From Jacunavirus JC01 (lineage: Duplodnaviria; Heunggongvirae; Uroviricota; Caudoviricetes; Casjensviridae): 61,736 bases of DNA. Position numbers and translations under genes: made by a program. The notes under the pieces are model-generated. The model made no database searches. It was not told the DNA's origin and saw only the letters and a program-made list of their open reading frames with translations. The stretch is taken from positions 1-61,736 of IMG/VR virus record IMGVR_UViG_2974716774_000001. One strand, given 5' to 3'. This document shows, piece by piece, positions 1 to 61,736 of the stretch; the stretch's first letter is position 1, and the number at the start of each line of letters is the position of its first letter.

Positions 1-12
1 GGTGCGCAGAGC
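1..12. repeat. Terminal 12-bp direct repeat GGTGCGCAGAGC, left copy (putative cohesive end)
   Basis: Bases 1-12 are identical to bases 61725-61736; a lambda-gpA-like large terminase is encoded at 10651-12723. Confidence 0.6.
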
Positions 13-477
13 CGCGATTCGCGAAAAATTGCCGGTTCCTGTATAGCGCCGCCTTGAAAATCAGCAACTTACGTGGGGCCGCCGGTGGGCTTAGCGTAGC
101 TAACAGGATAATTTTTCAGAAATTCGTCGATAGCCCCGCATTGAAAGTTTTTATTTATCAGCGACTTACAGGCCGCGGTCATCTCGACGGCACAGTGTGT
201 TTCCGGAAACACAGATTTGCCGTATTAAGTGTGTCGGTCAAAAAGCCTTACTGTACAAGGATTTACTATACTCTTAACACACTAACACACAGACACACTT
301 AATGTGTATATAAGGTAAGTAGGTATTGTGTGATGATCGTAATGGCGTTTCACGTTACGTATTATATGTATGTATTAGCGAGTTTTGAGAGTAAGTGTGT
401 CATGGTGAAAGTGCCGAAAAAGTCATGCAGATCATAGGTTTACCCGGCACACCCATTTTTAGCGGAGGGTGTGTCGC

Positions 478-514
478 CCAAAAACCAAAAAACAAAAACG
501 GGGCCGAAGCCCCG
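478..514 (-). terminator. Rho-independent terminator ending the leftward primase operon
   Basis: Hairpin CGGGGC-CGAA-GCCCCG at 499-514; on the minus strand it is followed by a long T-rich run (complement of the A-rich 478-498). Confidence 0.6.
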
Positions 515-548: not shown

Positions 549-3182
549 TTACGCCCACGTATCGGCGACCTCCTTCGCGGCGCAAGACGCGATTTGTTCT
601 TCCAGGTGGAGTTTCATGGCGTCGTAGTCGATGGTGTCTTTGTCCTTCATCCACTTTTCAGGGTGGCGCATCCATACTGATCCACGAACCCCGTTGACGC
701 GCAGCTGAATACGCTTAACCGGCCCTTTCGAGTACCCCAGCGCTGACAGTCGTGATGCCACTCTGCTGTCACTAGGACGTATGTCACGGGGCACGCTGCG
801 CAGTAACAGTCCTGTGTGTATTAGCTCGTCCGTGACGCCCGCCACATCGTCAGACGCAATGGCGTCTTCCACGAAGTTCGTGAAGTCGTCCTGGGCGTTA
901 TCGATCATGTCGCTGGTGGCTTCAGTGAGCGGAGCAATACCGGAAGAGTGGTCGAAGTCCTCGCTGTATTCCCAGTCACGGAACCACAGCCGCAGCTCGC
1001 CAGCGCACGCCTTGAATGCCTTCTCGAAGTCTTTGAAGAAGCCGGGCTTGTCCTTCAGGAAAGCCATCGCGTCTTCCTTACTGCGAAAGCGAGACCGGAC
1101 TATCAGGAAACGACGGTCGCCATTGCTAATCGGCAGCGCGGCGATGTCGTTGGTGTACATCATCCAGCTGGCCGTGTTCACTTCGTCCTGACCTTCGCGG
1201 TTCTTCCTCTCGATGAAAAGCTGCTCGTTAGTGATAGGCTCCTTCAGGGAGTTAATGACGTCATAGCGGTGGCCCGCAACGCTGATTTCCTCGATGACCT
1301 TCAGCATCGACCCGGCCTGCCATCCCGTGAATGGCCGGTGGATAACCTGGTTGTTGACGGTGCCGACGTTTTCGCGGCCCAGCAGGTACGACATGAATTT
1401 CTTGATAATCGTCTTGCCGGAACCCTGGCCGCCGAGAATGACCAGCGAGTACGTCATGCGTTTGTTCGGGTTATTGATAACCCATGCCAGCCAGTCCATC
1501 GCGTGCCGGTACTCTTCCGGGTCGACGAACTGCGTGCGGAAAAAGTCCTGCACAATCTCAACGGCTTTAAGGCCTTTCTTAGAGATTTTCTCCGGCACTC
1601 CCGGCATCGTTTTCGGGTCAAACGTGTTCAGCCAGAGTTTTCCCTGCCACCGGAAAAAGTCTTCGCTTGGCACGCCGACCTCAGGCTTCCATGACGAACC
1701 TGGCATCCGGCCGTGCATGTCCGGGTAGTACATCATGCCGTGGATAATCGGCACCGGCCGCAAAGCGGTGGCGAATTGCTCAGGACTGCAGCCCATAAAT
1801 GCGGTATGCTGCGCCAGCGAGTTATTGAACGCGTGCGGCACCAGCGCAACTTTCGTCTCGCGGTTGATGAAGAGGTTATCTTTCTCGGCGTACACCCACG
1901 GCTCTATCCAGGCTGGCGCATCAAACTGCTTGTGGTCGACAGACAGTGCGTTGCGTTTGGTGGAAGCAGGGATTTTCTTGCCGGTAATACGTTTGTAGTT
2001 ATCACAGGCCAGCTCTACTGCGTGATCGCGAATGGTTCCCCAGACCGGTGTTTCGCGAAGTCGCTCAGCTGCGCGATCCCATTCGTACAGGTCTTCTGCC
2101 TGTTCGAACATCGGGATAACCCGCAGTAAGATGTCCTTTTCCATACGGGCATCCTCCACTTTCTTCACCAGACTTCTGACGGTGAAGGTGGCACCGCCGG
2201 TGCGGCGGAAATTCCCGTTATCCCATTTGTCGTTAAACGCGGCCTCGTCGTAGTTCGACGCGCGCGCTGACCACTCCTGCGCCAGCTCGCGAAACTCATC
2301 CTGCTCGCGCTCAGCGTCTTTGATGGCTGCGATGACCGGGAACCAGGCAGAATAGTCTTCCGCTGGTGGCAGGTCTTCCAGCAGGGCAGCAAACTCGGCG
2401 TACGTGCCGTCCCATTTATCTTTCGCGTCGTCTGCGTCTACCCAGTCGTCCTCGTCCACTTCGCCCAGGGCATCGGAGCGGTCTTCCGGCGCGCCGCCGA
2501 CGATTTTCCCGCGCTGCGGTGGCTCGTACAGCTTGTCGCCAGGCTGGATTTTTTCCCATCCCTGCTCCATCGCATAGCGGTCAAACTCATCCACGATGCG
2601 GCGCGCGTCGGCAAGGCTCAGCACTTCGAGATCCATGTCAGCGTGCATCGTCAGCGGCGTGTCTTTGCTGACCCACTGATACGGCTTCTGGGTGCCCGGG
2701 TGGATACCGAAGGCGACGAACTGCTGGCCAGCACCGAGGATTTCCACGGCGTTCTTCTCGCCGAAGTCATCGACCCAGCTGTGCGACTTCACTTTCGTGA
2801 ACGGTTCGTCAGCGCAGTAGACGAGCAGCGTTTTTGGCGCCCGGCCCACGCGAGCGGGTGCAAACCCCACGTTGGCTTCGATGAAATCGCGCATATGCTT
2901 CGCCGCGTCGACGTCCATGCAGTCAATATCGACCGCTGGCGTGAACCAGGTGCGGATGCCGATGCCGTAGCGGAAATATTTCTTCTGCCATTCCTCCAGC
3001 GCGTCTTCGTTAACTGCAACCGACTCCCAGTTTTTCATGAGCGGCGCTTTACCGGCCGCCTTGAAAGGCACCAGCTCACCGGTCTTTTTGTCGCGGATCT
3101 TCGCGTCAAGAGGGGAGATTGGAATAAAGGCATAGCCGTTTTCTAGCAACGTCCTGCCGTATTGCTGGAGATATCTTTTCAT
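549..3182 (-). CDS. DNA primase/helicase (P-loop NTPase, D5-like)
   Basis: 877-aa ORF; Walker A-like LVILGGQGSGKT; long N-terminal region preceding the NTPase domain; sits beside the polymerase module. Confidence 0.65.
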   Translation of the reverse strand: MKRYLQQYGRTLLENGYAFIPISPLDAKIRDKKTGELVPFKAAGKAPLMKNWESVAVNEDALEEWQKKYFRYGIGIRTWFTPAVDIDCMDVDAAKHMRDFIEANVGFAPARVGRAPKTLLVYCADEPFTKVKSHSWVDDFGEKNAVEILGAGQQFVAFGIHPGTQKPYQWVSKDTPLTMHADMDLEVLSLADARRIVDEFDRYAMEQGWEKIQPGDKLYEPPQRGKIVGGAPEDRSDALGEVDEDDWVDADDAKDKWDGTYAEFAALLEDLPPAEDYSAWFPVIAAIKDAEREQDEFRELAQEWSARASNYDEAAFNDKWDNGNFRRTGGATFTVRSLVKKVEDARMEKDILLRVIPMFEQAEDLYEWDRAAERLRETPVWGTIRDHAVELACDNYKRITGKKIPASTKRNALSVDHKQFDAPAWIEPWVYAEKDNLFINRETKVALVPHAFNNSLAQHTAFMGCSPEQFATALRPVPIIHGMMYYPDMHGRMPGSSWKPEVGVPSEDFFRWQGKLWLNTFDPKTMPGVPEKISKKGLKAVEIVQDFFRTQFVDPEEYRHAMDWLAWVINNPNKRMTYSLVILGGQGSGKTIIKKFMSYLLGRENVGTVNNQVIHRPFTGWQAGSMLKVIEEISVAGHRYDVINSLKEPITNEQLFIERKNREGQDEVNTASWMMYTNDIAALPISNGDRRFLIVRSRFRSKEDAMAFLKDKPGFFKDFEKAFKACAGELRLWFRDWEYSEDFDHSSGIAPLTEATSDMIDNAQDDFTNFVEDAIASDDVAGVTDELIHTGLLLRSVPRDIRPSDSRVASRLSALGYSKGPVKRIQLRVNGVRGSVWMRHPEKWMKDKDTIDYDAMKLHLEEQIASCAAKEVADTWA

Positions 3183-6214: not shown

Positions 6215-8269
6215 ATGCCTGACCACATTCGCCTTGACTATGAATCCCGTAGCCGAACCGACCTGCCCACTGCAGGCCTGGCCCGGTATGTGCGAGACCC
6301 GACCACGCAGGTGCTGATGGCTTCCTGGGAAGAGAACGATTCAGGGAAAATCGACTTCTGGGATATCCGCCAGGGCCGACGGCCGCCAAAACCGCTGATT
6401 GATGCTATCCGCGATCCGAAAGTTATCAAATGGGCCTTCAACGCGCAGTTTGAGCGCAACATGACCGAGCATGTCCTCGGCATAAAAACCCCGTATTCTT
6501 CCTGGCGCTGTACGATGGTGCTGGCGTACATGCTGGGCTTCTCTGGCGACCTCGCAATGATTGGCAGACTGGTAGGCCTGCCCGAAGAGATGCTGAAGAG
6601 CAAAGAGGGTTCGAAGCTCATCTCGCGTTTCTCAAAGCCGCGTAAACCAACAAAGGCCGACCCACGCGAATGGCACGACTGGACGACGCACCCGGAAGAG
6701 TTTGACAGTTTTGGCGGCTATAACCGACAGGACGTGCGCGCGGAGTCCGCTATCGGCCGTCGGCTCGGCAATACGGAGAAATACCCCATTCTGGAAAGCG
6801 AGTGGGATCTCTATGCGCTAGACCAGTACATCAACGACACCGGAGTCACCGTCAACGCCGAATTTGCGCGCATGGCACTTGAGGTGGCCGAGCGCAGGAA
6901 GCCGATCCTTTTTGAAGAGATGCGCGACATTACCGGCCTCAGTAACCCCAACTCCGTGTCTCAGCTGCTGCCCTGGCTGGGAGAACGCGGCTACCACTTC
7001 AGCGACATGCAGTCGGAAACAGTAAAGCAGGCGCTGCGCGAAGCCGATGAGCTGGGTCTTCCGGAAGAAGTTCGTCGCGTGCTGAAGCTGCGCCAGAACG
7101 TCAGCAAGTCGTCGCTCGGCAAATACAACACGATGCTGAGCACCATGACCGAGGAAGATAACAAATACCGCTACTCGCTGCAGATGTGGGGCGCCAGCCG
7201 CACCGGCCGCTGGGCAGGACGCGGCGTTCAGCTGCACAATTTGCCCCGCACGCCAAAAATGCTGGAAGACGAGTACATGCAGGACGTCGCCATTGAGATG
7301 GTGAAAAAAGGCGACATGGAAGGACTGGAGCTGCTGGTCGGCGAGCCGATGGACGCGCTGGTCGGTCTGATCCGCTCTGCCTTCATCCCCACCCCAGGCT
7401 ACCGTTTTGTGGTATCAGACCTGGCATCCATCGAATCGGTCGTTATCGGCTGGCTGACTGACTGCAAATGGTTCATGGACACGCTGCACGCCGGGCGAGA
7501 CCTGTACCGGGCGTTCGCCGCAGAGTGGCTGAAGATACCGTACGAAGAGACAAAACCGCACCGCAGCAAAGCCAAACCGGCAACCCTCGGCGCGGGCTAT
7601 GGTCTCGGCGGCGGCAAATTCGACCCGATTAAGAAAAAGAAAAACGGCCTGTGGGCATACGGCGAAGGTATGGGCGTATTCATGACCCAGCAGGAAGCGC
7701 ACGCGTCCGTGAATGCGTTCCGCGAGCTTTGCCCTGAAATCGTTTCGTACTGGCGCCAGCTGGAAGATGCAGCCAAGACGTGCATCAAAGAGCGCCGGTC
7801 GGTCAAGTGCGGCAAGGTTACTTTCGAGTTTCGTAAGCCGTTCATGGCCATCGTTCTTCCGTCCGGGCGCCGCCTGTATTACTTCAAGCCTTTCCTGAAA
7901 AAGAAAACCGTCGAGTACACGGACAAACACACCGGCGAGATCAAGACGTTCGAAAGCCAGGAGATTCTCTACTACGGGAAAGACGGCCCGAAATGGGGTC
8001 TCCAGCACACCTACGGCGGCAAGCTGGTGGAAAACATCGTACAGGCTATCGCGCGTGACGTGCTGGCCGGTGGGCTGAAACGCGCGCACGAAGACGGCTT
8101 CGGCATACCGTTCCACGTCCACGATGAAATCATCACGGAAGTGCCGGTCGACGACGAAGAGCGAAATCTCGATCGTCTGCGCCAGCACATGACGGCGCCG
8201 ATACCGTGGGCACCAGGTCTACCCCTCGGCGCAGCTGGGTGGGAAGGCTTCCACTACAGGAAAGACTGA
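6215..8269 (+). CDS. DNA polymerase, family A (Pol I-like)
   Basis: 684-aa ORF; motif A-like VVSDLASIESVV, motif B-like RSKAKPATLGAGYGLGG, motif C-like HVHDEIITEV; RBS GGAG upstream. Confidence 0.85.
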   Translation: MPDHIRLDYESRSRTDLPTAGLARYVRDPTTQVLMASWEENDSGKIDFWDIRQGRRPPKPLIDAIRDPKVIKWAFNAQFERNMTEHVLGIKTPYSSWRCTMVLAYMLGFSGDLAMIGRLVGLPEEMLKSKEGSKLISRFSKPRKPTKADPREWHDWTTHPEEFDSFGGYNRQDVRAESAIGRRLGNTEKYPILESEWDLYALDQYINDTGVTVNAEFARMALEVAERRKPILFEEMRDITGLSNPNSVSQLLPWLGERGYHFSDMQSETVKQALREADELGLPEEVRRVLKLRQNVSKSSLGKYNTMLSTMTEEDNKYRYSLQMWGASRTGRWAGRGVQLHNLPRTPKMLEDEYMQDVAIEMVKKGDMEGLELLVGEPMDALVGLIRSAFIPTPGYRFVVSDLASIESVVIGWLTDCKWFMDTLHAGRDLYRAFAAEWLKIPYEETKPHRSKAKPATLGAGYGLGGGKFDPIKKKKNGLWAYGEGMGVFMTQQEAHASVNAFRELCPEIVSYWRQLEDAAKTCIKERRSVKCGKVTFEFRKPFMAIVLPSGRRLYYFKPFLKKKTVEYTDKHTGEIKTFESQEILYYGKDGPKWGLQHTYGGKLVENIVQAIARDVLAGGLKRAHEDGFGIPFHVHDEIITEVPVDDEERNLDRLRQHMTAPIPWAPGLPLGAAGWEGFHYRKD

Positions 8270-8556
8270 TGGCCGCCAAAGTCGTCAAAGAGTCGAAAGT
8301 CGAGAAGGAGATCCGGCAGTACGCTCTCGCGACCGGCTGGTGGGTGGCGAAGTTCGTCGCCCCCGGCAAGCGCGGCGTACCGGATCGCCTGTTCATCAAA
8401 AACGGCTGGCACCTTTTCATGGAGATAAAAAGGCCCGGAGAGGTACCAACCGAACAGCAGTTACTTCGCCACCAGGAGATGCGCAAATATGGGGCTATTG
8501 TCGTATGGGTCGACAGCGTTGAAGAAGCTAAAAGCTGGCTTGATTTCATATGCTGA
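8269..8556 (+). CDS. VRR-NUC domain nuclease
   Basis: About 95 aa from the ATG overlapping the PolA stop (ATGA); residues PDRLFI...EIKRPGE fit the VRR-NUC pattern. Confidence 0.55.
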   Translation: MAAKVVKESKVEKEIRQYALATGWWVAKFVAPGKRGVPDRLFIKNGWHLFMEIKRPGEVPTEQQLLRHQEMRKYGAIVVWVDSVEEAKSWLDFIC

Positions 8557-10072
8557 ATACCGACACCGGAAATTTAAGCTGGTCGCCTATAAGCGGATGC
8601 AGCAGCACAAATACCAGCGAGAGGCCTATGACTTCATCATGGCCACGCCTTTCTGCGGGCTCTTCATCGACATGGGTCTCGGCAAAACAATCACCTCCCT
8701 GACCGCCGCGGTTGACCTGCTGATGAATTTCGAGGTCAGCCGCGTCTTGATCATCGCGCCCCGGCGCGTTGCTCGCAAAACATGGCCGGACGAGATTCTG
8801 GCGTGGGAACACACCTGCATGTTTGAGTTTCAGGTTATTGACGGCTCGGTTAAGCAGCGTCTGGAGGCCATCAAAAACCCGTGCAGCATTCACATTGTCA
8901 GCCGTGATAACGTCGAGTGGCTAACCGAGCAGTGGCGCCAGCGATGGCCATACGACATGGTTATCATTGACGAGAGCAGCTCCTTCAAAGACCACACTAC
9001 CAAACGCTTTAAAGCAATGCGCCGCGTTCGTCCGTACATCAAACGCCTCGTTGAACTGACGGCCACACCGGCGGCAGAGACCTACGAGCATCTTTTTGCC
9101 CAGGTCTATCTGCTGGACAGCGGCGCGCGCTTCGGCAAAAGCATCACGGTCTACCGCGAGCAGTATTTCAACTACAACCGCTGGACGTTCAAATACAAAC
9201 TGCGGGAGGGCTCGGAGCAGCAGATACTGGAGAAAATCGCCGACATCTGCCTGGTCATGCGCGCCGAGGACTATCTCGATCTGAAGCAGCCGGTGTACAT
9301 CAACCGCAAGGTGAAACTCGACCGCAAGCAGTCGAAGCTGTACGCCGAGATGGCTGAGAATTTCATCGTTGAGGTTTATGGCGCCGATGAGCAGCCGGTG
9401 ATGGTCGAGGCGGAGACAGCGGCGTCGCTTTCGGCCAAACTCCTGCAGATGTCCTCCGGCGTGCTATACAACACCTATCTGGACGGCATTAACGAGAAGA
9501 CCGGAAAGCCTATCCAGAAGCGCGACATCTACGAGATCCACACGGCAAAACTTGACATGCTGGAGGAAATCATAGAAGAGTGCGCTGGAGAGAACATTCT
9601 CGTGGCGTACCACTTCCAGTCGTCGCTTGACCGCCTGAAGAAGCGCTTTCCTAAAGCGGTTCAGATGGACAAAGAAGGCGAATGTGTCACGAAGTGGAAC
9701 CAGGGCAAGATAAGCCTGCTGCTGGCGCACCCGCAATCAGCCGGGCATGGTCTGAACCTGCAGAAAGGCGGCCACATCATTGTTTACTACGACATCCCGC
9801 ACTCGCTGGAGCTGTACATGCAGTTTAACGGCAGACTGGCGCGGCAGGGTCAGACGCACGTCGTCAAGATTATCCACCTCATCGCTGAAGGCGAGAAGCA
9901 GGATAAGCGCGGCGAGTGGGTGCCCATGCCGACGGTCGACGTCGGTGTCGTCGAATCCCTCCAGGCCAAAAAGGACGGCCAGGAATGGTTACTGGAAGAA
10001 TTGCTGCGGATACGCCGCCGACGCGCCAACGCGCGCAGGAAGGCACTGGCCGCAGCCGTAGAGGACTTCTGA
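8489..10072 (+). CDS. SNF2/DEAD-like helicase
   Basis: ATP-binding GLGKT motif, DESS (DEAH-like) box, C-terminal helicase region; start ambiguous (8489 overlaps the VRR-NUC gene, alternative ATG at 8597). Confidence 0.7.
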   Translation: MGLLSYGSTALKKLKAGLISYAEYRHRKFKLVAYKRMQQHKYQREAYDFIMATPFCGLFIDMGLGKTITSLTAAVDLLMNFEVSRVLIIAPRRVARKTWPDEILAWEHTCMFEFQVIDGSVKQRLEAIKNPCSIHIVSRDNVEWLTEQWRQRWPYDMVIIDESSSFKDHTTKRFKAMRRVRPYIKRLVELTATPAAETYEHLFAQVYLLDSGARFGKSITVYREQYFNYNRWTFKYKLREGSEQQILEKIADICLVMRAEDYLDLKQPVYINRKVKLDRKQSKLYAEMAENFIVEVYGADEQPVMVEAETAASLSAKLLQMSSGVLYNTYLDGINEKTGKPIQKRDIYEIHTAKLDMLEEIIEECAGENILVAYHFQSSLDRLKKRFPKAVQMDKEGECVTKWNQGKISLLLAHPQSAGHGLNLQKGGHIIVYYDIPHSLELYMQFNGRLARQGQTHVVKIIHLIAEGEKQDKRGEWVPMPTVDVGVVESLQAKKDGQEWLLEELLRIRRRRANARRKALAAAVEDF

Positions 10073-10073
10073 G

Positions 10074-10667
10074 ATGGTGGCGAAAAACAAAAATGCACCG
10101 ATGGCGCTAAGGGCGCGCCGGTCTAACCAGAACGACTCTGAAACCGAGTCGATGATATTCCAGGGCGCGAACATCACGCAGCTCGGGAAACTGTTTCGCA
10201 TGGATCGCCGCGACATCACGCCGAAAATAATGGACGTGGCGCCGTGTGGCGAGCGCGGCGGATACCCCATCTACTACGTCCATGAAGTCGCGCCGCACCT
10301 GGTGAAGCCGATATACGACGTCGAGACCTACCTCAAGCGAATGCACCCGAACGATCTGCCAAAACATCTGACGAAAGAGTTTTGGGGCGGGATGCGCGCC
10401 AAGCAGGAGTACGACAAGGAAGCGGGCAACCTGTGGGAGACGGATAAAGTCATCGCGATAATGAGCGAAGTTTTCAAAGTCCTGCGAATGTCTATCCTGC
10501 TGGCCGGTGACACCGTGGAGCGCGAAATCGCTTTCACCGCTGAACAACGCGAGAAGCTTCGCGTTATTCTCGACGGCGCGCTGCAGGAATGCGCTAACGG
10601 CCTGGTAAACCGCTTCGGCCCTGAGGCTGAGAAAGAGCAGGAGCAGGACGATGACGACGAAATATAA
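10074..10667 (+). CDS. Terminase small subunit (Nu1-like, putative)
   Basis: 197-aa ORF immediately upstream of and overlapping the large terminase; N-terminal region resembles the lambda Nu1 winged-HTH; acidic C-terminus QDDDDEI. Confidence 0.5.
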   Translation: MVAKNKNAPMALRARRSNQNDSETESMIFQGANITQLGKLFRMDRRDITPKIMDVAPCGERGGYPIYYVHEVAPHLVKPIYDVETYLKRMHPNDLPKHLTKEFWGGMRAKQEYDKEAGNLWETDKVIAIMSEVFKVLRMSILLAGDTVEREIAFTAEQREKLRVILDGALQECANGLVNRFGPEAEKEQEQDDDDEI

Positions 10668-12723
10668 AAACCTCGCTGCGATAGTAGCAGACCTGGCGGA
10701 GCAGCTGCGGCCGCCGGAGCGTCTCACCGTTGCCGCTGCCGCCGAGAAATATCGTTTCGTCAACCAGCCGGGTGCCTACATCGGGCCGTGGCTTAATGAG
10801 ACCGCGCCGTACATGGTCGAGCCGATGAACGTCTTCGCCAGCCGCGAGTATAACCGCATGGCGTTCGTCGGCCCGGCGCAGTGCGGCAAAACGGACTCCC
10901 TCATCATTAACGGCGTGGCCTATTCGGTGAAAGTCGACCCGCTGGACACGATGGTTTTCTGCCCCACCAGCAACGCGGCGCGCGACTTCTCGATGCGCCG
11001 TATCGACCGTCTCCACATGCACAGCCCCGAGATCGGGATGATGCTGCGCAAAAGCCGCGACGCCGACAACAAATTCGACAAGCACTATGTAAACGGCATG
11101 ATGCTGACGCTCAGCTTCCCGTCGAAAACGGAGATGGCAGGCCGCCCGGTAGGCCGCATCATCATGACCGACTTCGACCGTATGCCGATGGACGTGGATG
11201 GCGACGGCAACCCGTTTGACCTGGCGTCAAAGCGTACGACGACGTTTAACTCATTCGCCATGTGCTGCGCGGAGTCCTCGCCTTCCCTGCCGCTGACCGA
11301 CCCAAACTGGATAGCCAAAGGCGAGCATGAAGCGCCGCCCTGCGAGGGCATTTTCGCGCTCTACAACCGAGGCGACCGTCGACGCTGGCAGTGGCCATGC
11401 CTGCACTGCTGGACGTGGTTCGAGGGCAAATTCGAACACCTGCAGTGGGATACTCGCGAAGGCCTGTCCAACGCCGAGCGCGGCGAAACCGTACGCATGG
11501 TCTGCCCGCACTGCGGCGTGGAGATCCACCCTGACGAACGTCACGAGATGCAGCAGTGGGGGATGTGGGTGCCGGAAGGATGCCGTGTCAACGAGAAGGG
11601 TCAGCTCACGGGTAAGCGCCCTCGCACGCAGTTCGCGTCTTTCTGGCTGCGCGGCACGGCGGCGGCATTCGCTCAGTGGCGCAGCCTCGTCACCACCTAC
11701 CTCGACGCGCTGGATGAATATGACCGCACGATGTCCGAAGAGGCGCTGAAGAAATTCTGGAACAACGACATGGGCGAAGTCTACCGCCCGAAAAGCCAGG
11801 AGTCTCTGCGCGTACCGGAGGCACTCAAAGCCCGGGCCGAGAAGCTGCCGGAGCAGATGGTACCGAATGGCGTGCGTTTCCTCGTGGCGACCGTCGACGT
11901 CCAGCAGAACCGTTTTGAGGTTATGGTGTCCGGAATAATGCCCGGCCAGCCTTTTGACGTTGTGCCGATTGACCGCTTTAAGATCGCCAAGTCCGAGCGA
12001 CTGGACGTGGACGGCGAGCGCCTGCCCATTAACAGCTCAGCCTACCTTGAGGACTGGCGCCTGCTGGAAGAACGGGTCATCAACGCGTCCTACCCGCTGG
12101 CTGATGGCTCCGGTCGTCGGATGCGCGTCAAGATAACGGGCTGTGACTCCGGCGGTAAAGCCGGTACCACCGACAAGGCGTACGACTTCTGGCGTGAGCA
12201 GCGTGACAAAGGCAACGCTGGCCGATTCATTCTGCTGAAAGGTGAGCCAAACGCTTCGGCGCCGCGTACTCGCGTGGGCTTCCCGGACAGCCAGCGCAAA
12301 GATAATAAATCCGCAGCACGCGGCGATATTCCCGTGTTGTTCATAAACTCTAACATGATGAAGGACAGTCTTAACGGACGACTGGACGTCATGGAGCCCG
12401 GGAAGGGCATGATTCACCTGGCGACGTGGATGCCGGATGCGTTCTTCTCGGAGCTGTGCGCCGAGGTCAGAACGGACAAGGGATGGCAAAACCCGAAAAA
12501 CCTGCGAAACGAAGCGTGGGATTTGCTGTATTATCAGCTCGCTCTCTGCGCTTCGCCCAAGCTGCTGGCTGTCGAGATGATGGACTGGGAGAACCCTGTC
12601 GGCTGGGCGGAAGAGTGGGATAAAAACGACCTCGTATCGCAGCCAGATGAAGGCGAGCGCTTCCAGATGAAGGCGAGCGAGGATAAGATAGATTTCGGCA
12701 AATTCGCCGAGGCGCTTGCGTGA
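10651..12723 (+). CDS. Terminase large subunit (lambda gpA family)
   Basis: 690-aa ORF; Walker A GPAQCGKT; size and organisation as lambda gpA; followed by gpW-like and portal genes. Confidence 0.85.
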   Translation: MTTKYKNLAAIVADLAEQLRPPERLTVAAAAEKYRFVNQPGAYIGPWLNETAPYMVEPMNVFASREYNRMAFVGPAQCGKTDSLIINGVAYSVKVDPLDTMVFCPTSNAARDFSMRRIDRLHMHSPEIGMMLRKSRDADNKFDKHYVNGMMLTLSFPSKTEMAGRPVGRIIMTDFDRMPMDVDGDGNPFDLASKRTTTFNSFAMCCAESSPSLPLTDPNWIAKGEHEAPPCEGIFALYNRGDRRRWQWPCLHCWTWFEGKFEHLQWDTREGLSNAERGETVRMVCPHCGVEIHPDERHEMQQWGMWVPEGCRVNEKGQLTGKRPRTQFASFWLRGTAAAFAQWRSLVTTYLDALDEYDRTMSEEALKKFWNNDMGEVYRPKSQESLRVPEALKARAEKLPEQMVPNGVRFLVATVDVQQNRFEVMVSGIMPGQPFDVVPIDRFKIAKSERLDVDGERLPINSSAYLEDWRLLEERVINASYPLADGSGRRMRVKITGCDSGGKAGTTDKAYDFWREQRDKGNAGRFILLKGEPNASAPRTRVGFPDSQRKDNKSAARGDIPVLFINSNMMKDSLNGRLDVMEPGKGMIHLATWMPDAFFSELCAEVRTDKGWQNPKNLRNEAWDLLYYQLALCASPKLLAVEMMDWENPVGWAEEWDKNDLVSQPDEGERFQMKASEDKIDFGKFAEALA

Positions 12724-56717: not shown

Positions 56718-56747
56718 AAAGATATAACTACACTTCGGATGTGTCAA
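56718..56747 (-). promoter_or_regulatory. Sigma70-type promoter with embedded dyad (family member) driving the leftward operon
   Basis: Minus strand TTGACA-CATCCGAAGTGTAG...TATATC about 30 nt upstream of the 56684 start. Confidence 0.45.
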
Positions 56748-57293: not shown

Positions 57294-57322
57294 TTGACAC
57301 ACTCCGGGTGTATCACTACTAT
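57294..57322 (+). promoter_or_regulatory. Sigma70-type promoter with embedded dyad (family member) driving rightward genes
   Basis: TTGACA-CACTCCGGGTGTATCAC-TACTAT. Confidence 0.45.
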
Positions 57323-59372: not shown

Positions 59373-59401
59373 TTGACACACTTCAGGTGTATCATTAATA
59401 T
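59373..59401 (+). promoter_or_regulatory. Sigma70-type promoter with embedded dyad (family member)
   Basis: TTGACA-CACTTCAGGTGTATCAT-TAATAT. Confidence 0.45.
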
Positions 59402-61115: not shown

Positions 61116-61156
61116 CTGATATCCATTCCTTCCCGTCTCTCATCCGGCCCGCCCTG

Positions 61157-61183
61157 CGCGGGCTTTTTTATTTCCGCTATTCC
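61157..61183 (+). terminator. Rho-independent terminator
   Basis: Stem GCCCGC / GCGGGC, loop CCTGC, followed by TTTTTTATTT; near-copy of the 59278-59303 terminator. Confidence 0.65.
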
Positions 61184-61343: not shown

Positions 61344-61445
61344 CACACACTTCGGATGTGTCATGGGTGGCTGTGGTGCTGACACTTCGGATGTATCAAA
61401 GGCGCGGTGTGATTGTGACACGTTGATACACATGGAATGTGTCAT
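61344..61445. promoter_or_regulatory. Cluster of TGACAC/GTGTCA dyad elements (operator-like or packaging-recognition sites)
   Basis: CACACACTTCGGATGTGTCA (61344-61363), TGACACTTCGGATGTATCA (about 61380-61398), GTGACACGTTGATACACA and AATGTGTCATG (about 61412-61445). Confidence 0.4.
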
Positions 61446-61724
61446 GCCTGCGGCTGTGCTGTGGTACGGATGATGCCGCGTGCCCTGGTGTGGTGGGCTG
61501 GTGGATAGCCCTGATAATACCCTTTCTCCTGATGTTCTGTGATGCGGTGTGACAACCGCACTATCTGATGCCCATAGAAGGCCGATAAACGAGGCTGTGC
61601 GGGCCGATCTATGCTGTGCCTATGATACCCTATTGCTTCTGTGCTTGCGTGGCGTGTGGTGCGCGCTGTGCGTTATTCCGCGAAAGCCGAAAAGGTACTT
61701 CCCCGGCCAGGCCGGAAAGCCGGG

Positions 61725-61736
61725 GGTGCGCAGAGC
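61725..61736. repeat. Terminal 12-bp direct repeat GGTGCGCAGAGC, right copy (putative cohesive end)
   Basis: Exact copy of bases 1-12 at the last 12 positions of the window. Confidence 0.6.

Follow-up and report, generated by a model that had tools for sequence, protein, structure and literature searches.

Results

The stretch of DNA analysed here (61,736 nucleotides, hereafter the window) is almost certainly the complete linear virion genome of a chi-like siphophage, JC01 (Casjensviridae), opened at its cos site, with the cosN core GGTGCGCAGAGC written out at both ends. A string search of the whole window found this 12-mer exactly at positions 1-12 and 61725-61736, both times on the plus strand, and a search of both strands allowing up to one mismatch found no further copy in the 61,736 bases. 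The two terminal copies are thus exact and lack a third, as the preliminary description had reported when it pointed to identical 12-nt sequences at the window ends. The longest prefix of the window that is also its suffix is exactly 12 nt: beyond that length the match breaks, with CGC following the left copy where the right copy meets the end of the sequence, and GGG preceding the right copy. A shuffle test scored occurrence of the 12-mer anywhere; the relevant point is that both copies lie at the extreme ends, and the chance that the last 12 bases of the window equal its first 12 is about 1e-7.

The left cohesive end (1..12, plus strand) has exactly the sequence of the overhang measured in the phages chi, Utah and Siskin, and in virion DNA these bases would form a single-stranded 5′ extension of the top strand, which would become the cosN core once the ends are joined. 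The right copy (61725..61736) repeats this cosN core, and its minus strand, 5'-GCTCTGCGCACC, would be the 5′ extension of the right end. The 12 terminal bases should accordingly count once, not twice.

Chi-type cohesive ends in published phages

These termini are already known, having been published for JC01 and measured in its relatives. Of ten papers listed for the 12-mer in a full-text search, nine deal with chi-like phages. In the Salmonella phage chi, GGTGCGCAGAGC was measured as a 12-nt 5′ overhang by primer extension (PMC4342425), and in the E. coli phage Utah the same overhang was measured by run-off sequencing (PMC5374247). The position of the 12-mer end was confirmed for Siskin by ligation PCR/sequencing of ligated DNA and by run-off sequencing (PMC6498227), and PhageTerm placed SeF2 in the class Cos (5′), Lambda type, with the same sequence (PMC9409062). 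The same ends have been reported for Seifer and for chi-like phages of Proteus and Klebsiella. The belief that chi-like phages have 12-nt cohesive ends, which the preliminary description had offered as unverified, is therefore correct: the chi, Utah and Siskin data all give this 12-mer. Public records agree, with the 12-mer annotated as a cos overhang or as cohesive ends in those of Enc34, Utah and Seifer; the Enc34 record carries a 'cos overhang' at both ends, the right-end one on the minus strand, which is the convention also followed in the window. One-base variants of the 12-mer occur in distant members of the family, namely Redjac (GGTGCGGAGAGC) and pEp_SNUABM_08 (GGGGCGCAGAGC).

The genome of Cronobacter phage JC01 was published as 61,736 bp without tRNA genes and with GGTGCGCAGAGC at both ends (PMC9759504), and the window likewise has 61,736 bp and no tRNA. 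Among phages it matches a Chi-like Salmonella phage best, at 73.6% identity, as the JC01 paper also reports, and megablast searches with both window ends found no relatives above ~74% identity. Length, termini and these similarity values are the basis on which we take the window to be JC01. We computed a GC content of 58.52% for the window vs 58.9% in the JC01 paper; length and termini agree exactly.

JC01 was sequenced by Illumina and its ends were inferred by comparison with chi-like phages (PMC9759504). The single-strandedness, polarity and exact length that we ascribe to the JC01 overhang are accordingly presumed from homology. One alternative is that the duplication is editorial, the cos site being real and the second copy having been added by analogy, with JC01 ends that differ slightly in position, length or polarity. 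The reliance of the JC01 paper on chi-like phages for the terminal sequence (PMC9759504) would fit such a course of events, as would the one-base variants seen in Redjac and pEp_SNUABM_08, but we consider it very unlikely: the 12-mer, the CGGG before it and the CGC after it are those of phages with measured ends, the large terminase is 64% identical to that of chi, and the nearest uncurated relatives of the window end exactly at the 12-mer.

Packaging genes and the proposed cleavage at cos

The lambda-gpA-family large terminase that the preliminary description had named is borne out by domain searches, in which the product of 10651..12723 (plus strand) matched both GpA_ATPase (N-terminal; Pfam PF05876, 217 bits) and GpA_nuclease (C-terminal; PF20454, 213 bits), with scores far above the cut-offs. 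Full-length comparison of this TerL gave 64% identity with chi TerL and 23% with lambda gpA (E=7e-15), and as a member of the gpA family the enzyme is predicted to make staggered nicks at cos. The small terminase, TerS (10074..10667, plus strand), belongs to the DUF1441 family (PF07278) and is 60% identical to chi TerS gp11; its ORF overlaps that of TerL (10651-12723). DUF1441 was the only domain match obtained for TerS, with no detectable similarity to lambda Nu1. Since TerS is not of the Nu1 family, the cosB logic of lambda may not transfer. The two terminase subunits are orthologues of chi gp11 and gp12, and they are accompanied by a portal of the lambda family and a capsid of the E family.

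The gene order is that of chi: cos, primase (minus strand), DUF2800, PolA, helicase, TerS and TerL. The primase (549-3182, minus strand) and PolA (6215-8269) lie between the left end and the terminase genes, the helicase (8489-10072) ends just before TerS begins at 10074, and the terminase genes are thereby placed >10 kb from the left cos end, in the position typical of chi (PMC4342425).

We propose the following course of events, which has been shown for relatives. Replicating circular or concatemeric DNA would hold one 12-bp copy between the present right-end and left-end sequences. TerL (10651-12723), positioned by TerS (10074-10667), would introduce one nick in the top strand, 5′ of G1, and a second in the bottom strand, 12 bp further along, and strand separation would then leave 12-nt 5′ extensions, 5'-GGTGCGCAGAGC on the left and its complement on the right. 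After injection the ends would anneal and be ligated into a circle. Judging from the conserved blocks around cos, packaging would start on the left-end side, where a ATAGCCCCGC box and an IHF-consensus site occur twice in a cosB-like arrangement, and would end at the next cos with the help of a cosQ-like AAGGTACTT box ~31 nt upstream of the nick.

A 12-bp direct terminal repeat that is double-stranded, both copies being duplex in each virion, would produce the same assembly ends and the same single copy in a collapsed circle as a filled-in 5′ overhang. It is nevertheless extremely improbable, given that chi and Utah show single-stranded 5′ extensions of 12 bases (PMC4342425, PMC5374247), that Siskin DNA was ligated end to end with a junction fitting the model of a 12-nt overhang (PMC6498227), and that the terminase is of the gpA type, the nicks made by the lambda enzyme being staggered 12 bp apart (PMC9026076).

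Joined ends and assemblies of relatives

Joining the window ends with one copy of the 12-mer yields, in searches of a phage collection, one continuous match to dozens of circularly permuted chi-like records. The junctions of chi, Utah, KNP7, KPN N137, Enc34, Redjac and pEp_SNUABM_08 align gaplessly with that of the window, and the cos flanks are contiguous on one-copy joining in a gapless alignment of 19 junctions that spans genera. Because the one-copy junction matches permuted relatives as a single piece, we conclude that replicating DNA holds one copy of the 12-mer and, therefore, that the unique length of the genome is 61,724 bp. The two ends should be handled as neighbours in genome comparisons. 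In the same searches, two records labelled Staphylococcus phage (OR850235.1 and GU169904.1) were found to contain a chi-like cos segment, which suggests that these public records are mislabelled or chimeric.

We scanned IMG/VR twice, with the 12-mer plus its right flank and with the 12-mer plus its left flank, for chi-like contigs from uncurated metagenome assemblies. Three contigs start exactly at G1 (L043, L059 and L082) and three others one base earlier (L070, L084 and L086), and five stop exactly at C12 (L111, L116, L119, L120 and L122). The contigs nearest to the window, at ~72% nucleotide identity and closer to it than chi, belong to those that end at the site. The 12-mer stands at both ends of four contigs (58.6-61.2 kb), as it does in the window, which is the result expected because 5′ overhangs are filled in during library end repair; 3′ overhangs, unlike these, would be trimmed. 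In the window, the depositor may also have chosen deliberately to write the ends in this way. In a public chi-like isolate genome of 59.6 kb (L026, IMGVR_UViG_2974711357_000001), G1 is joined directly to 23 bases of Illumina adapter, CCTACACGACGCTCTTCCGATCT; the adapter is contamination of the record, yet it is also incidental proof of a physical DNA end.

These contig ends all but rule out an arbitrary assembly break and make cos ends very likely in the lineage of the window. The preliminary description had raised as its alternative a circular-assembly overlap, in which the 12 bases would be a leftover at an arbitrary opening point unrelated to the physical ends, and although many chi-like records are permuted with cos internal and one Proteus chi-like phage was 'circularized upon assembly', this explanation is highly improbable and finds no support here, given that the break falls to the base on the measured chi and Utah end, the cos position of the family (about 1 in 61,724 for an arbitrary break), that relatives assembled independently and without curation are opened at exactly this base too, at both ends, and that assembler overlaps have k-mer length, typically at least 21 rather than 12. 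The primary proposal of that description, a cos overhang written at both ends of a complete linear genome, is instead supported by the gpA terminase, the ends of the chi family and the JC01 paper.

Three other contigs, all from uncultured viruses, L100, L106 (11814-11829) and L117 (8027-8042), contain CGGG followed by GGTGCGCAGAGC, and ~30 nt upstream GGGTCCC or GGGTCCT replaces AGGTACT. One of them, L100, stops exactly at C12. These contigs may represent a further phage group that combines a chi-type overhang with a lambda-type box.

Conserved blocks flanking cos

Alignment of the cos flanks across 19 junctions (mean identity 56%) revealed several conserved blocks around the nick. On the upstream side, a AAGGTACT box at −31/−30 occurs in 19/19 aligned junctions; in the window the corresponding block is AAAAGGTACTTCCCC (61690..61704, plus strand), which lies ~31 nt before the nick, at the place that cosQ has in lambda, and may signal packaging termination. 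CCGGG (61720..61724, plus strand), the left flank of cosN, stands directly 5′ of the top-strand nick, and CGGG at −4..−1 is conserved in at least 90% of the 19 junctions. The right cosN flank is CGC (13..15, plus strand), directly after the overhang, as it is in lambda.

Further downstream, the conserved box ATAGCGCCGC (43..52, plus strand) has a fixed position at +43: a box of the WTAGCCCCGC type lies at position 43 in 13/14 left ends examined and is also conserved in the 19-way alignment. It is a candidate binding site for the small terminase, possibly equivalent to an R3-like cosB element. It is followed by an IHF-like site, AATCAGCAACTTA (59..71, plus strand), which departs from the IHF consensus WATCAANNNNTTR at one base; chi, Utah, Enc34, Redjac and several metagenome contigs carry a perfect match there, and the site may bend DNA in the manner of lambda I1. 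A second module of box and IHF-like site (123..169, plus strand), with ATAGCCCCGC at 130-139 and TATCAGCGACTTA at 156-168, forms direct repeats (D1, D2 and D4) and is a candidate second cosB element. Second copies of WTAGCCCCGC lie at ~+146 to +169 in chi, Utah, Enc34, KPN N137, Redjac and L026, and most relatives have one.

Between the two modules, at ~+90 from the left end, the window has TTAGCGTAGCTAA (88-100), and several metagenome relatives carry TAGCGTAGCTA or TAGCATAGCTA. At that place chi, Utah, Enc34 and the Klebsiella phages have CCCGTAGGG. The sequence at 88-100 is another conserved element near cos, specific to a subgroup.

On the strength of these conserved positions we put forward, tentatively and at slightly less than an even chance, a three-part cos that would be read by the DUF1441 protein and would consist of a AAGGTACTT box ~30 nt upstream, cosN, and two direct ATAGCCCCGC boxes, each with an IHF-consensus site. 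Included in this tentative reading are a homology of the upstream box with lambda cosQ and the apparent novelty of the arrangement for Casjensviridae, for which it seems undescribed; our literature search found no paper analysing cosQ or cosB subsites in chi-like phages.

Palindromes, junction ORF and repeats near cos

The preliminary description had also noted loose rotational symmetry in the sequences flanking the 12-mer. The palindromes concerned, CCGGCCAGGCCGG at 61703-61715 and CGCGATTCGCG at 13-23, are both present, but they are specific to JC01 and unconserved in 19-21 related junctions. Hairpin potential of the spacer between upstream box and nick shows no consistent excess among relatives (mean z −0.2). 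We therefore rejected CCGGCCAGGCCGG and CGCGATTCGCG as cos features, on the grounds that they are unconserved and that the spacer lacks a hairpin tendency. Twofold symmetry around the overhang itself is partial, with 12/22 positions in JC01, 10/22 in chi and 10/22 in lambda.

The Utah record annotates an 84-codon ORF (Utah_01) that exists only across the joined ends (L011 1-150 plus L012 396-500). The same frame in the window (61641-61724 plus 1-57) holds only a 46-codon ORF with a GTG start. Start codons vary among relatives and stops range from +19 to +301, and a conserved gene across the joined ends was rejected on that basis. Because neither start nor stop of the ORF is conserved, the conservation around cos is at the DNA level.

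Repeats of the type GTGTGTC/ACAC were considered as terminase-binding sites and rejected, since a related 17-nt palindrome also occurs 2-5 kb from cos, at −35 boxes; the repeats look regulatory rather than packaging-related. This 17-nt near-palindrome, ACACTTCGGATGTGTCA, has six copies in the window (56730-56746, 57299-57315, 59378-59394, 61347-61363, 61382-61398 and 61428-61444) vs 0.09 expected. In three copies the element overlaps a perfect −35 box (TTGACA) of a sigma-70-like promoter, at 56747 (minus strand), 57294 (plus) and 59373 (plus); the remaining three are arrayed 290-390 bp upstream of cos. The element looks like an operator for a phage regulator.

At the non-coding left end (190-480), GTGTGTC/GACACAC occurs at 229, 292 (minus strand), 395 and 469, in company with a perfect 18-nt palindrome, TGTGTTTCCGGAAACACA, at 196-213 and an AT-rich segment (~240-400), and the region adjoins the primase-helicase gene. 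Relatives have other iterated motifs at this place, GTTACAA in chi and GGGAC in pEp_SNUABM_08. The region may serve as an origin or in regulation, with iterons that are specific to the phage. Two strong hairpins resembling intrinsic terminators, each followed by a T run, lie on either side of the cos region. One at 499-514 (minus strand, CGGGGCTTCGGCCCCG) closes the minus-strand primase operon, and the other at 61146-61164 (plus strand, GGCCCGCCCTGCGCGGGCT) closes the plus-strand right-arm genes; when the ends are joined, cos falls within the ~1.1 kb of non-coding sequence that the two hairpins delimit.

Discussion

The window is almost certainly a complete and correctly opened genome with a cos packaging mechanism; the finding of its cohesive ends is correct but ordinary. 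Generalised transduction of the kind seen with headful packagers is not expected from phages with fixed cos ends, which matters here since JC01 has been put forward for biocontrol. What is mildly new is confined to the map of conserved subsites, a modest addition that places packaging signals of the chi-like family in a form open to testing.

Within the chi-like cluster of Casjensviridae (Chivirus, Yonseivirus, Enchivirus and others), the window shares an identical GGTGCGCAGAGC with CGGG before and CGC after it, the upstream AAGGTACTT box, the downstream ATAGCCCCGC box and the IHF-consensus site. As in chi, a long non-coding region holds cos, with terS and terL >10 kb downstream. The window differs from chi in a genome ~2 kb longer, with nucleotide identity to Chivirus of about 68-74%, in a AAGGTACTT box one base further from the nick, in a second cosB-like module at +130 vs ~+147, and in lacking the chi gp1 (HTH) gene between cos and the primase gene.

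In lambda, cos is made up of three parts: cosQ, which serves termination, cosN, which is nicked, and cosB, whose R sites and IHF site serve initiation (PMC4669245, PMC9026076). The lambda overhang, GGGCGGCGACCT (as defined in PMC4669245), shares 4/12 bases with GGTGCGCAGAGC; TerL is only 23% identical to gpA, and TerS belongs to DUF1441 rather than to the Nu1 family. Nu1 starts at bp 191 in lambda, whereas the terminase genes of the window are >10 kb from cos, and lambda has three R sites with R2 inverted (PMC4669245), in contrast to the direct repeats formed by the repeated boxes of the window.

The two systems are alike in having a 12-nt 5′ overhang (in the window, a presumed one), a gpA-family TerL with ATPase and nuclease domains, a lambda-family portal and an E-family capsid, and both have a candidate protein-binding box and an IHF-consensus site within 75 nt downstream of the overhang. 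The ends of lambda (NC_001416) also show GGGTCCT at the same upstream distance as the chi-type AGGTACT, and the overhang is followed by CGC. When lambda and chi are aligned from the nick, 22/45 positions over −45..−1 are identical. Local alignment of the lambda cos with those of chi and Enc34 was not significant; with only the nick-anchored identity raised, homology between the lambda and chi cos sites is therefore suggestive and not shown. We take the GGGTCCT upstream of the lambda nick to be cosQ sequence, and if the upstream box of chi-like phages is its homologue, the termination signal would co-evolve with gpA-type large terminases over a wide range. From its conserved blocks, the chi-type cos may share the three-part logic of lambda, with cosQ, cosN and cosB plus an IHF site, and work with a different small subunit.
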